The translations under genes were made by a program, and so were the position numbers. Under the pieces are notes generated by a model that was not told where the DNA came from, made no database searches, and saw only the letters and a program-made list of their open reading frames with translations. Shown here in pieces: positions 1 to 45,197 of a stretch of DNA of 64,000 bases (position 1 is its first letter; each line of letters starts with the position of its first letter). Origin of the DNA: Escherichia coli (lineage in GTDB: Bacteria > Pseudomonadota > Gammaproteobacteria > Enterobacterales > Enterobacteriaceae); assembly GCF_030013205.1 (NCBI RefSeq), contig NZ_CP122648.1; one strand, given 5' to 3'.

Positions 1-490
1 AGTTTTTGCGCCAAAATACCGAAGACAAGTGTTCTACAGAGAGAAGCGTAGAGCAATAGGCAGTATTTTGAGAAAGCTGTGTGAGTGGAAAAGCGTACGG
101 ATTCTTGAAGCTGAATGCTGTGCAGATCATATCCATATGCTTGTGGAGATCCCGCCCAAAATGAGCGTATCCGGCTTTATGGGATATCTGAAAGGGAAAA
201 GCAGTCTGATGCTTTACGAGCAGTTTGGTGATTTGAAATTCAAATACAGGAACAGAGAGTTCTGGTGCAGAGGGTACTACGTCGATACGGTGGGTAAGAA
301 CACGGCGAAGATACAGGATTACATAAAGCACCAGCTTGAAGAGGATAAAATGGGAGAGCAGTTATCGATTCCCTATCCGGGCAGCCCGTTTACGGGCCGT
401 AAGTAACGAAGTTGGATGCAAATGTCAGATCGTGTGCGCCTGTTAGGGCGCGGCTGGTAAGAGAGCCTTATAGGCGCATTTGAAAAACCT
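1..490 (+). mobile_element. IS200 copy, partial (left part lies off the window); right boundary approximate
   Basis: Contains 5'-truncated IS200 tnpA; right end placed before hairpin at 488-506 from recalled IS200 length, not seen directly. Confidence 0.6.
2..406 (+). CDS. tnpA: IS200 transposase TnpA (Y1 HuH family), 5' end truncated by window edge
   Basis: Frame open to window start (VFAPKYRRQVFYREKRRAIGS...); HuH motif HIHMLVEIPP and catalytic-Tyr region RGYYVDTVG; near-identical to recalled IS200 TnpA. Confidence 0.85.
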   Translation, partial: VFAPKYRRQVFYREKRRAIGSILRKLCEWKSVRILEAECCADHIHMLVEIPPKMSVSGFMGYLKGKSSLMLYEQFGDLKFKYRNREFWCRGYYVDTVGKNTAKIQDYIKHQLEEDKMGEQLSIPYPGSPFTGRK

Positions 491-543
491 CCGGCTATGC
501 CGGAGGATATTTATTTCAGTTTCGCGGCGGGTGGCATCAGCAA

Positions 544-570
544 TAAAGTTTCCCCCTTCCTTGCCGATAA
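544..570 (+). promoter_or_regulatory. Sigma-28 (FliA) promoter of the tar-tap-cheRBYZ operon
   Basis: TAAAGTTT (544-551), 11-nt spacer, GCCGATAA (563-570); matches the sigma-28 consensus, about 30 nt upstream of tar. Confidence 0.8.
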
Positions 571-601
571 CGAGATCAACTTGTTTTCAGGAAGGTGCCT
601 T

Positions 602-2263
602 ATGATTAACCGTATCCGCGTAGTCACGCTGTTGGTAATGGTGCTGGGGGTATTCGCACTGTTACAGCTTATTTCCGGCAGTCTGTTTTTTTCTTCCCTT
701 CACCATAGCCAGAAGAGCTTTGTGGTTTCCAATCAATTACGGGAACAGCAGGGCGAGCTGACGTCAACCTGGGATTTAATGCTGCAAACGCGCATTAACC
801 TGAGTCGTTCAGCGGTGCGGATGATGATGGATTCCTCCAATCAACAAAGTAACGCCAAAGTTGAATTGCTCGATAGCGCCAGGAAAACATTGGCCCAGGC
901 CGCGACGCATTATAAAAAATTCAAAAGCATGGCACCGTTACCTGAAATGGTCGCTACCAGTCGTAATATTGATGAAAAATATAAAAACTATCACACAGCG
1001 TTAACTGAACTGATTGATTATCTTGATTATGGCAATACTGGAGCTTATTTCGCTCAGCCAACCCAGGGAATGCAAAATGCAATGGGCGAAGCGTTTGCTC
1101 AGTACGCCCTCAGCAGTGAAAAACTGTATCGCGATATCGTCACTGACAACGCAGATGATTACCGATTTGCCCAGTGGCAACTGGCGGTTATCGCGCTGGT
1201 GGTGGTATTGATTCTGCTGGTGGCGTGGTACGGCATTCGCCGTATGTTGCTTACACCGCTGGCAAAAATTATTGCTCACATTCGCGAAATCGCCAGTGGT
1301 AACCTGGCGAATACCCTGACCATTGACGGGCGCAGTGAAATGGGCGACCTGGCGCAGAGCGTTTCACATATGCAACGCTCTTTGACTGACACCGTCACTC
1401 ATGTGCGTGAAGGTTCAGATGCCATCTATGCCGGTACCCGTGAAATTGCGGCGGGCAACACCGATCTTTCCTCCCGTACTGAACAGCAGGCATCTGCGCT
1501 GGAAGAAACTGCCGCCAGCATGGAGCAGCTCACCGCGACAGTGAAGCAAAACGCCGATAACGCCCGCCAGGCCTCGCAACTGGCGCAAAGTGCCTCCGAT
1601 ACTGCCCAGCACGGCGGAAAAGTAGTGGATGGTGTAGTGAAAACGATGCATGAGATCGCCGATAGTTCGAAGAAAATTGCCGACATTATCAGCGTTATCG
1701 ATGGTATTGCCTTCCAGACTAATATCCTCGCGTTGAATGCCGCTGTTGAAGCCGCGCGTGCGGGTGAACAGGGCCGTGGTTTTGCCGTGGTGGCGGGCGA
1801 AGTGCGTAATCTTGCCAGTCGCAGCGCCCAGGCGGCAAAAGAGATCAAAGCCCTCATTGAAGACTCCGTCTCGCGCGTTGATACCGGTTCGGTGCTGGTC
1901 GAAAGCGCCGGGGAAACAATGAACAATATCGTCAATGCTGTCACTCGCGTGACTGACATTATGGGCGAGATTGCATCGGCATCGGATGAACAGAGCCGTG
2001 GCATCGATCAAGTCGCATTGGCGGTTTCGGAAATGGATCGCGTCACGCAACAGAACGCATCGCTGGTGCAGGAATCAGCTGCCGCCGCAGCTGCGCTGGA
2101 AGAACAGGCCAGTCGTTTAACGCAAGCGGTTTCCGCGTTTCGTCTGGCAGCCAGCCCACTCACCAATAAACCGCAAACACCATCCCGTCCTGCCAGTGAG
2201 CAACCACCGGCACAGCCACGACTGCGAATTACTGAACAAGATCCAAACTGGGAAACATTTTGA
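602..2263 (+). CDS. tar: Methyl-accepting chemotaxis protein II (aspartate/maltose chemoreceptor Tar)
   Basis: 553 aa from ATG 602 (MINRIRVV) with RBS AGGAAGG; matches recalled K-12 Tar; six-frame ORF starts earlier at 497. Confidence 0.95.
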
Positions 2264-43545: not shown

Positions 43546-44715
43546 TTAAGCCGCAACCGTCTGTGTGACGGATTTACGCTGGCCTCCATGGGCAGAAACG
43601 ACGAGTCCCGCCGCTTGTAATTCCAGTATGCCCTTGCGTTTGATGTTGAGCGCCGCGTTGATATCGCGGTCATGTTCAACTCCACACTCTGGACACTGCC
43701 AGATGCGCTTATGTAATGGCATCTCCGACATTTTGTGACCGCAGCAGTGGCAGGTCTTCGAACTGGCGAACCATTGATCCAGTTTCACCAGATGCACACC
43801 TTTCTCTGTTGCTTTGTATTCCAGTTTTGTGATGAATCCAGACCATCCAGCATCGCCTATCGCACGAGCCAGATGGTGATTTTTCATCATATTTGCCGTT
43901 TTCAATGTCTCGACAATTACCGCTTGGTTTTCGTCAACAATTGCGCGAGATAACTTGTGCTGGAAATCGGCACGGGCACTGGCTACCCGTTCGTGAACGG
44001 CTGCAAGTTGTATTCTGGCTTTGCGCCTGTTTGCGCTCCCTTTTTTCTTACGGGACAGTGCTTTCTGCTTCCGGCGCAGGTTGCGACTTGCATTGATTAG
44101 GTGGCGGGGACTGGCAATTTTATTGCCGTCCGATTTGATGACAAAATGCGCCAGCCCCATATCCAGCCCTGTCACATTTGATATCAGTGCGGGCTTTGCC
44201 GGCGCTTCCATCCCGTCGTCACAGAGTAACGACGCGTAGTATTTCCCGGTTGCGCTGCGGCTCAACGTGATACTTTTCAGCATTCCCGTAATTTCACGAT
44301 GTAAACGCGCCTCAATCGGCAAGATTTTCGGTATTTTTATCGCACCATCAAGGACTTTTATGCCAACACAATGATAGCTCGATTGTCTGCCGTGTTTACT
44401 TTTAAAGGTTGGTTTACCTGCTTTCAGTTTCGGATTGAAAAAGTTAGAAAAAGCCACGTCGAGGTTAATTACCGCCTGCTGCAACGCAATAGAATCATAT
44501 TCTTTAAGCCATCCATACCGGCGGGATTTCTTCGCCACTGCAAGCAGTGGTTTGAGGTCTTTACGCGGGTTTAAATTTACGCGGTGCCGCTGGTAAGAAT
44601 GTTTCTTGATATGCAGAGCTTTGTTGTACGCAAAACGCACTGCACCGAACTGGGCGTTGATAAATTCAGCCTGTTCTGGTGTCGGGTAGATGCGTACTTT
44701 TGTTGCTCTTAACAT
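43546..44715 (-). CDS. tnpB: IS605-family TnpB (RuvC-like RNA-guided endonuclease, OMEGA effector)
   Basis: 389 aa; RuvC-I GLDMGLAHF, RuvC-II AVIVETL, zinc finger CHCC...CPEC, RuvC-III HDRDINAALNI; looks intact. Confidence 0.85.
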   Translation of the reverse strand: MLRATKVRIYPTPEQAEFINAQFGAVRFAYNKALHIKKHSYQRHRVNLNPRKDLKPLLAVAKKSRRYGWLKEYDSIALQQAVINLDVAFSNFFNPKLKAGKPTFKSKHGRQSSYHCVGIKVLDGAIKIPKILPIEARLHREITGMLKSITLSRSATGKYYASLLCDDGMEAPAKPALISNVTGLDMGLAHFVIKSDGNKIASPRHLINASRNLRRKQKALSRKKKGSANRRKARIQLAAVHERVASARADFQHKLSRAIVDENQAVIVETLKTANMMKNHHLARAIGDAGWSGFITKLEYKATEKGVHLVKLDQWFASSKTCHCCGHKMSEMPLHKRIWQCPECGVEHDRDINAALNIKRKGILELQAAGLVVSAHGGQRKSVTQTVAA

Positions 44716-44771
44716 AATCAGCGCTCATTGATATAATGCTTTTATTTTAACACTTTAGGTGAATATATCAA

Positions 44772-45197
44772 TTGAGTAATCATGATGATTTACTGGCGGG
44801 ATTTCTCCGCAAACGACACAGTGTCAGTAAGCTGGTTGTGCACCTTATTTTTACGACAAAGTATCGACGCAAACTATTCGACAGTCAGATGATCGCTCAG
44901 TTGCGTGAGGCTTTTGGCTCCGCTGCGGCAAAGCTTGAATGCGAAATTATTGAGATGGACGGGGAGCCAGACCATGTACACCTGCTGGTTGCCTACCCGC
45001 CAAAACTGGCGGTCAGTGTGATGGTCAATAATTTAAAATCGGTATCATCACGTTTGCTACGCCAGCAGAACGCGCATTTACGTATGCAGAGTAAAACGGG
45101 GCTTTTGTGGTCGAGATCGTACTTTGTCTGTAGCACCGGAGAGGCAACGATTGAAACGCTCAGAGCCTACGTTCAGAGTCAGTCAACACCTGATTGA
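44772..45197 (+). CDS. tnpA: IS200/IS605-family transposase TnpA (Y1 HuH)
   Basis: 141 aa; HuH motif HVHLLV, catalytic-Tyr region WSRSYFVCSTGEA; first in-frame start is TTG, so start uncertain. Confidence 0.8.
   Translation: MSNHDDLLAGFLRKRHSVSKLVVHLIFTTKYRRKLFDSQMIAQLREAFGSAAAKLECEIIEMDGEPDHVHLLVAYPPKLAVSVMVNNLKSVSSRLLRQQNAHLRMQSKTGLLWSRSYFVCSTGEATIETLRAYVQSQSTPD

Follow-up and report, generated by a model that had tools for sequence, protein, structure and literature searches.

Does an insertion sequence lying just upstream of tar disturb the chemotaxis genes on either side of it? The question is raised by the first lines of a 64,000-nucleotide stretch of Escherichia coli DNA (assembly GCF_030013205.1, contig NZ_CP122648.1; hereafter the window, numbered from its first base), which opens inside an IS200-type tnpA. 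The original prediction, made from the window alone, placed the element in or near the cheW-tar junction and its end about 50 bp upstream of the tar promoter. It raised the concern that termination of the motA-motB-cheA-cheW transcript and chemotaxis gene dosage might be altered. It also proposed extending the sequence upstream and aligning positions 407-543 with the uninterrupted junction, and named the finding that would speak against it: a hairpin at 488-506 belonging to the IS, with cheW intact and its own terminator elsewhere.

Over its first 1200 bases the window matches the chromosome of E. coli ETEC4079, a strain from pig faeces in Belgium, with 100% identity. In about 5400 other complete E. 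coli genomes, the match to these 1200 bases begins only at about position 510. The ETEC4079 locus consisting of the 1200 bases plus 4 kb on each side (L001; window position = L001 position - 4000) has the gene order motA-motB-cheA-cheW, a complete 152-aa tnpA and tar-tap-cheR-cheB, which puts the IS inside the cheW-tar junction as predicted. The upstream extension located the left end of the IS at window position -195 and showed the 3' end of cheW to be intact. The features at the junction are as follows.

L001 3805-4515 (window -195 to 515), plus strand: complete IS200C, 711 bp, delimited by comparison of filled and empty sites; IS200C is the RefSeq name.
Window 1-515, plus strand: right-hand 515 bp of IS200C, the element starting 195 bp before the window.
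Window 1-406, plus strand: 3' part of tnpA (codons 19-152 and the stop), encoding a Y1/HUH transposase (Pfam PF01797).
Window 407-515, plus strand: non-coding right end (RE) of IS200C, missing from empty sites; fold of -44.3 kcal/mol, z=-3.7.
Window 488-506, plus strand: subterminal hairpin of the RE with an 8-bp stem and a 3-nt loop, presumed to be bound by TnpA.
Window 510-515, plus strand: TTTATT, the final 6 nt of the IS and likewise the final 6 nt of the left flank (the target), from the filled/empty comparison.
L001 3772-3798, 195-240 bp before the window, plus strand: predicted intrinsic terminator hairpin of cheW (terminator scan and fold).
Window 516-543, plus strand: native cheW-tar spacer between the IS and the tar promoter, 28 bp, the same as in the empty-site strain 118UI.
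Window 544-570, plus strand: sigma-28 promoter of tar (tar-tap-cheRBYZ operon), TAAAGTTT-N11-GCCGATAA, by consensus match.
Window 602-2263, plus strand: tar, intact, 553 aa, with Pfam TarH, HAMP and MCPsignal domains.

Window 2-406 encodes the final 134 residues of an IS200-type (Y1) transposase (Pfam PF01797, E=7e-33) and ends with a TAA stop at 404-406, in agreement with the prediction of an IS200 tnpA reading toward tar. The complete coding sequence (L001 3948-4406) specifies the 152-aa protein WP_000526135.1, annotated in RefSeq as 'IS200C family transposase'. The element is IS200C, a minimal, tnpA-only member of the IS200/IS605 family, as the RefSeq annotation already says, and other E. 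coli copies have the same length of 711 bp (10-13 copies measured). All characteristics of the IS200 group that can be read from sequence were found: a length in the range of about 707-711 bp, a Y1 TnpA of about 150 aa as the only gene product, no terminal inverted repeats, no target-site duplication, two subterminal hairpins, and a site 3' of a short target at which the IS top strand falls on the presumed lagging-strand template. A second IS200/IS605-family element in the window, ISEc46 (43546-45197, between yebE and ptrB), carries tnpB, encoding an InsQ/TnpB RNA-guided endonuclease, on the minus strand and tnpA on the plus strand.

Both boundaries of IS200C were read from the filled and empty sites. 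In 118UI and K-12 the empty site is ...GAACCCGATGACCTGCGCATCGGGTTTTTTATTTCAGTTTCGCGG..., and the filled site in ETEC4079 is ...CATCGGGTTTTTTATT / GTGCACAGAAAACCCCCAGCTAGGCTGGGGGTTCC ... CCTCCGGCTATGCCGGAGGATATTTATT / TCAGTTTCGCGG, with slashes at the junctions. Comparison of the two revealed no target duplication, and no duplicated bases are needed to derive one from the other. Because the IS end and the target both read TTTATT, the right boundary is ambiguous over 509-515; a junction shifted by 3 bp in strain HCP4S3_I4 (see below) shows that on the left side the shared TTTATT is target sequence and on the right side it is the end of the IS. The last IS base is 515, which leaves 28 bp up to the -35 box and not some 50 bp to the promoter. 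Of the interval proposed for alignment, only 516-543 is native spacer; 407-515 is IS sequence absent from empty sites.

The hairpin at 488-506 is present as described. It consists of CCTCCGGC-TAT-GCCGGAGG, occurs once in the window (0 expected by chance) and folds as RNA with -15.9 kcal/mol (z=-5.0); DNA folds were also computed. The terminator scan found it terminator-like on both strands, followed by ATATTTATTT on the plus and TTTTTCAAAT on the minus strand. Since it is absent from empty sites, it belongs to the IS. We rejected its reading as a displaced cheW terminator: empty sites lack it and cheW has a terminator of its own. The left end (LE) carries a GC-rich 10-bp hairpin at IS nucleotides 11-33 (-18.7 kcal/mol as RNA), and the two hairpins are parallel in sequence (CCCCCAGC-TAG-GCTGGGGG vs CCTCCGGC-TAT-GCCGGAGG). 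The Rfam family STnc490 matches at full length at the left end of the IS (L001 3815-3938, 146.4 bits). In the IS200 of Salmonella, left-end nucleotides 12-34 form a bidirectional rho-independent terminator that blocks impinging transcription, the tnpA promoter is weak, and the Shine-Dalgarno sequence is sequestered in the 5'UTR, opposite the antisense RNA art200; terminator, 5'UTR and weak promoter together keep the element near-dormant (PMC4513863). Salmonella IS200 and E. coli IS200C share a length of 711 bp, a single 152-aa Y1 transposase, the lack of tnpB, inverted repeats and target duplication, the LE hairpin at nucleotides 11-33, the STnc490/art200 region and the RE subterminal hairpin. 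No structural difference separates them; only the cheW-tar location is rare (4/5426 genomes).

What lies to the left of the IS is a host terminator. It begins 22 nt past the cheW stop, consists of GAACCCGATG-ACCTGCG-CATCGGGTT followed by TTTTTTATT, and folds with -16.5 kcal/mol (z=-4.1), features that qualify it as a predicted rho-independent terminator. The same terminator is found in genomes that lack the IS, namely 118UI and K-12, where the cheW-tar spacer measures 144 bp and includes it; contrary to what had been assumed, tar does not follow cheW directly in K-12. The IS adjoins the 3' end of the T-tract (...GGGTTTTTTATT), after its ninth base (TTTTTTATT), and leaves the hairpin and the 9-nt T-tract unaltered. 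The upstream hairpin and T-tract were also considered as part of the IS, a possibility rejected on the grounds that these hairpins differ from site to site and that E. coli empty sites have the hairpin.

To the right of the IS, the promoter at 544-570 proved intact as predicted. It shows 0 mismatches to the sigma-28 consensus (with up to 2 mismatches allowed, 0.03 matches are expected), is separated from the tar ATG by 31 bp, and has both boxes conserved in all five aligned strains (including K-12, 118UI, PT62 and HCP4S3_I4). With this exact match, it has the sequence expected of a sigma-28 (FliA) class 3 flagellar promoter. CheW (WP_000147301.1) and Tar (WP_001306742.1) have the same sequences in ETEC4079 and in 118UI, and the downstream chemotaxis and flh genes are all annotated as intact. 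We also considered an outward or internal sigma-70 promoter driving tar and rejected it, since no sigma-70-like promoter was found in L001 3600-4700 (1.4 expected by chance).

The one host feature that the insertion breaks is C0465, a candidate sRNA (Rfam RF00116) of the cheW-tar spacer, in minus orientation. Strain 118UI has it whole (100.3 bits); ETEC4079 has no contiguous 78-nt minus-strand match, as the IS splits the locus into two parts.

Window 481-554, minus strand: chimeric C0465 match, 65.8 bits; its native half is 516-554, and the IS RE hairpin replaces the cheW terminator hairpin.
L001 3768-3805, minus strand: displaced C0465 fragment, 39.8 bits, 711 bp away.

The Rfam alignment of C0465 places the RE hairpin where the cheW terminator hairpin stood, an independent illustration of the likeness between the two. 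If the RNA is functional, the insertion would not be fully silent.

How, then, would transcription proceed across the junction? The cheW transcripts would still end at their own, unchanged terminator, and any read-through would meet the IS left-end terminator 11 nt further on. The tnpA gene would be weakly expressed and followed by the RE hairpin, and tar would still be driven by its own FliA promoter. Given the unchanged cheW terminator, the LE terminator next to it, the lack of a sigma-70-like promoter and the native state of the tar promoter and the 28 bp before it, no effect on chemotaxis is predicted. It was the reverse that the original prediction had in mind, with 488-506 as a displaced host terminator and with both termination and gene dosage changed. 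That the IS sits between the two operons, lengthens the distance from the cheW terminator to the tar promoter by 711 bp and splits the C0465 locus speaks for such a perturbation. It is nevertheless highly improbable: the hairpin is missing from empty sites and is the IS's own, further upstream cheW retains its terminator hairpin with the TTTTTTATT tract, CheW and Tar equal those of the empty-site strain, and the promoter and the 28 bp preceding it are native. For C0465 itself, overexpression gave no motility or biofilm phenotype (PMC4606813). Disturbed termination of the motA-motB-cheA-cheW transcript finds no support beside the unchanged terminator, nor does an altered gene dosage with cheW intact and provided with a terminator of its own, which is the very finding named beforehand as speaking against the concern. 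The observation behind the prediction is partly confirmed, its features being real and their boundaries corrected; its interpretation is partly supported, right on location and promoter, with the functional concern left unsupported. By its sequence, the insertion looks typical, with little or no predicted effect on chemotaxis.

The position of the IS directly behind a terminator was compared with that of other copies. A species-representative genome collection was scanned with the 21-mer of the left-end hairpin, ACCCCCAGCTAGGCTGGGGGT, which returned 120 loci, many of them in metagenome-assembled genomes, often from the gut, and at contig ends. Among the hosts are Yersinia pestis (IS1541), Citrobacter, Brenneria, Dickeya, Pluralibacter and Vibrio. 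The 60 nt before each left end almost always hold a different GC-rich hairpin and a T-tract that reaches the IS. The test asked for an ungapped hairpin (5 bp or more, of which 3 or more G:C) and a T-rich tail running up to the junction, and 112 of the 123 unique left-end junctions (91%) scored positive. Of 3000 random positions 76 (2.5%) did so, and of 3000 at the end of a T-rich pentamer 311 (10.4%). Most of the 11 junctions that failed show visibly bulged hairpins. The flank consensus, derived from 104 junctions, is T(-6)T(-5)T(-4)N(-3)T(-2)T(-1), that is TTTNTT, and the IS right end is alike. Between the hairpin's final G:C pair and the junction the distance is 6-10 nt, most often 7. Within the IS, the first seven bases vary across the 120-locus set and a GAAAA before the LE hairpin is almost invariant. 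By analogy with the position of the guide in IS608-type elements, this GAAAA is a candidate target guide.

The exact 21-nt LE hairpin ACCCCCAGCTAGGCTGGGGGT also occurs in very distant taxa (L006-L109), including Mailhella/Desulfovibrio, Elusimicrobia, Bacillota, Oxalobacter, Vibrio and Shewanella, many of the occurrences being at metagenome-assembled contig ends, while the adjacent IS sequence varies. Such a distribution may stem from strong conservation or from horizontal spread.

In E. coli, nine further distinct IS200C sites encode the identical transposase, and each of them is right behind the terminator of an upstream gene in the same orientation; Pfam domains suggest that these upstream genes include guaA, galU and fabF. 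Two more sites obey the pattern, giving eleven further E. coli sites in all. One copy, in the ompC-rcsD spacer of E. coli 21AR0807 (L137 1195-1230), directly follows the hairpin AACCGGATGCCTCGCATCCGGTTTTTTTT, which we take to be the terminator of the micF sRNA, micF lying in this spacer in K-12. If so, sRNA terminators also serve as sites. At further loci (H35-H40), partial matches reach 20-30 nt into the cheW terminator, and transduced flank was considered as their origin. This was rejected for the two loci fetched, because they have unrelated terminators of similar shape, one of them in the ompC-rcsD spacer. In Y. pestis NCTC5923, IS1541 copies occur in tandem (L111, L112 and L114), the LE of one abutting the RE of another (...GCCGGAGGATATTTATT/GTGCCCAG and also ...GCCGGAGGATATTTATT/GTGCCCAGAAA). 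The right end of the IS, a hairpin and 9 nt ending in TTTATT, is therefore itself a target.

These features suggest how the element would have arrived. The plus strand of the window has a positive GC skew over the first 28 kb and holds the IS top strand, and the K-12 operon, on the minus strand at 1.97 Mb, is co-directional with replication. From the skew and the K-12 position we infer that the lagging-strand template here is the sense strand, which bears both the T-tract and the top strand of the IS. Insertion into this template is reported for the IS200/IS605 family (PMC5027513). Arrival would have been by single-strand 'peel-and-paste' transposition on this template, and the Y1 transposase would cleave and join 3' of a short T-rich target, TTTNTT. 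Intrinsic terminators would offer this motif beside a DNA hairpin, much like the IS right end with its hairpin and 9 nt ending in TTTATT. Taken as a whole, a complete IS200C 3' of the cheW terminator T-tract, inserted by a single-strand route and near-neutral to the host, is the best explanation of the locus, and we hold it with high confidence.

Two readings of the terminator pattern were weighed. According to one, recognition is active, and IS200-group transposases read intrinsic terminators as structures in DNA: where the lagging-strand template is single-stranded, a terminator hairpin with TTTNTT 6-10 nt on would mimic the IS right end. According to the other, no structure is targeted; any exposed T-rich pentamer or hexamer can receive the IS on its 3' side, and survival is limited to copies behind terminators, where the host would take no harm and tnpA would be protected from read-through. 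The latter gains from TTTNTT being the sole visible sequence requirement. Most E. coli copies lie between convergent genes and are harmless there. Insertion of IS1541 into coding sequence under selection has been reported (Cornelius 2009, cited in PMC4513863 and PMC2806898), and a preprint of 2025-26 reads the pattern as a persistence niche. The data less easily accommodated by survival are the hairpin at 91% of junctions against 10% of T-rich controls, the narrow hairpin-junction distance of 6-10 nt and the use of the IS right end, with its hairpin and TTTATT, as a target in tandem copies. The sampled IS1541 junctions of Y. pestis obey the pattern too. Many genes of Y. pestis have been disrupted by other IS families, which would argue against strong purifying selection there. 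Insertion without structural targeting is possible, if clearly short of an even chance. Active recognition, for its part, is a tentative proposal, which we would put only a little below even. It is favoured, without being proven, by the 9-fold excess over T-rich controls, the narrow spacing and the Y. pestis pattern.

The cheW terminator itself has been hit more than once. Queries with the right and the left junction agreed in finding the cheW-tar insertion in 4 of 5426 complete E. coli genomes: ETEC4079, PT62, LP5-1 and HCP4S3_I4. PT62 and LP5-1 were counted as one strain because both are pigeon isolates with the same record length and the same match coordinates, so that the four genomes represent three strains. 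In PT62 and LP5-1, with genomes of 4.58 Mb (L003), the copy at the cheW terminator is the only IS200. In HCP4S3_I4 the IS follows GGGTTTTTT and the flank resumes with ATTTCAATTT; the junction lies 3 bp to the left, which marks a separate event. ETEC4079 and PT62 have the same junction, with flanks differing by 1.3-1.6% and IS copies by 0.4%; across carriers the IS copies differ by 0.4-0.7% and the flanks by 1.3-1.9%. Flank SNPs reach up to the IS, in the terminator loop and 4 nt after the element.

A single ancient insertion, spread by descent or recombination, would account for the exactly shared junction of ETEC4079 and PT62, and precise excision of IS200/IS605 elements could have led to losses without a scar. 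We consider it improbable. The HCP4S3_I4 junction, 3 bp off, cannot be the same event, the flanks diverge right up to the IS and about three times more than the IS copies do, and the filled site is confined to 4 of 5426 genomes. Independent strikes on the cheW terminator number at least two and, to judge from the flanking divergence, probably three; three independent hits are the most economical reading. Recurrence at one terminator needs no special explanation, since by a rough estimate IS200 copies in E. coli genomes number in the thousands and suitable terminators only in the hundreds.

Among related elements, IS1541 of Y. pestis has the same LE hairpin 21-mer and the same right end (...CCTCCGGCTATGCCGGAGGATATTTATT) as IS200C and also sits behind a hairpin and T-tract. 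It has been reported between pheL and pheA (PMC3082878). IS1541 differs in its host, its higher copy number (PMC4513863) and its tandem copies. One base among the first 11 left-end nucleotides (GTGCCCAGAAA) also differs. The pheL-pheA position is just past the pheL attenuator terminator. IS608 and ISDra2, the family members dissected by experiment, resemble IS200C in their Y1 transposase and subterminal hairpins, in inserting next to the 3' end of a 4-5 nt target that is not duplicated, and in a preference for the lagging-strand template (PMC5027513). They differ in carrying tnpB and in their targets, TTAC and TTGAT. The target of IS200C is T-rich (TTTNTT), a host hairpin almost always precedes it, and its sequence is also that of the right-end cleavage site. 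A niche of the same kind is occupied by group IIC (bacterial class C) introns, which, in work by Robart, Seo and Zimmerly of 2007, were reportedly found to insert just downstream of terminator stem-loops by recognising the DNA hairpin. These are retroelements with wholly different chemistry, and the analogy is one of niche and not of relationship.

The general terminator pattern is not a new discovery, because the preprint of 2025-26 already reports it. It shows statistically that terminator-like sequences lie just upstream of IS200/IS605 elements; as we read its supplementary table, in 40% of 20,314 copies such a sequence precedes the ORF and falls beyond the element itself. Its authors regard the pattern as limiting transposase expression. 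In the searchable literature, this preprint was the only explicit account of terminator targeting by IS200/IS1541 that we found. The same literature, which does not take in the 1998 paper on IS1541 insertion sites (Odaert et al.), yielded no explicit statement of the TTTNTT-after-hairpin rule, the likeness of right end and target, or tandem targeting of the right end. Priority for these three points is not claimed, as Odaert et al. 1998 may already describe the rule.

For the window, these results mean that an ordinary, annotated IS200C copy occupies its habitual niche, is probably silent and matters little. More generally, IS200-type elements very clearly sit right behind intrinsic terminators, and their right end resembles their target. 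If active structural targeting is at work, it would constitute a natural safe-harbour insertion rule, with each co-directional terminator serving as a built-in attachment site. Such a rule, combining structure and motif, would differ from that of IS608 and ISDra2, which consists of a tetra- or pentanucleotide only. It would also explain a long-standing paradox, how a near-dormant, multi-copy IS persists across phyla with almost no gene disruption.
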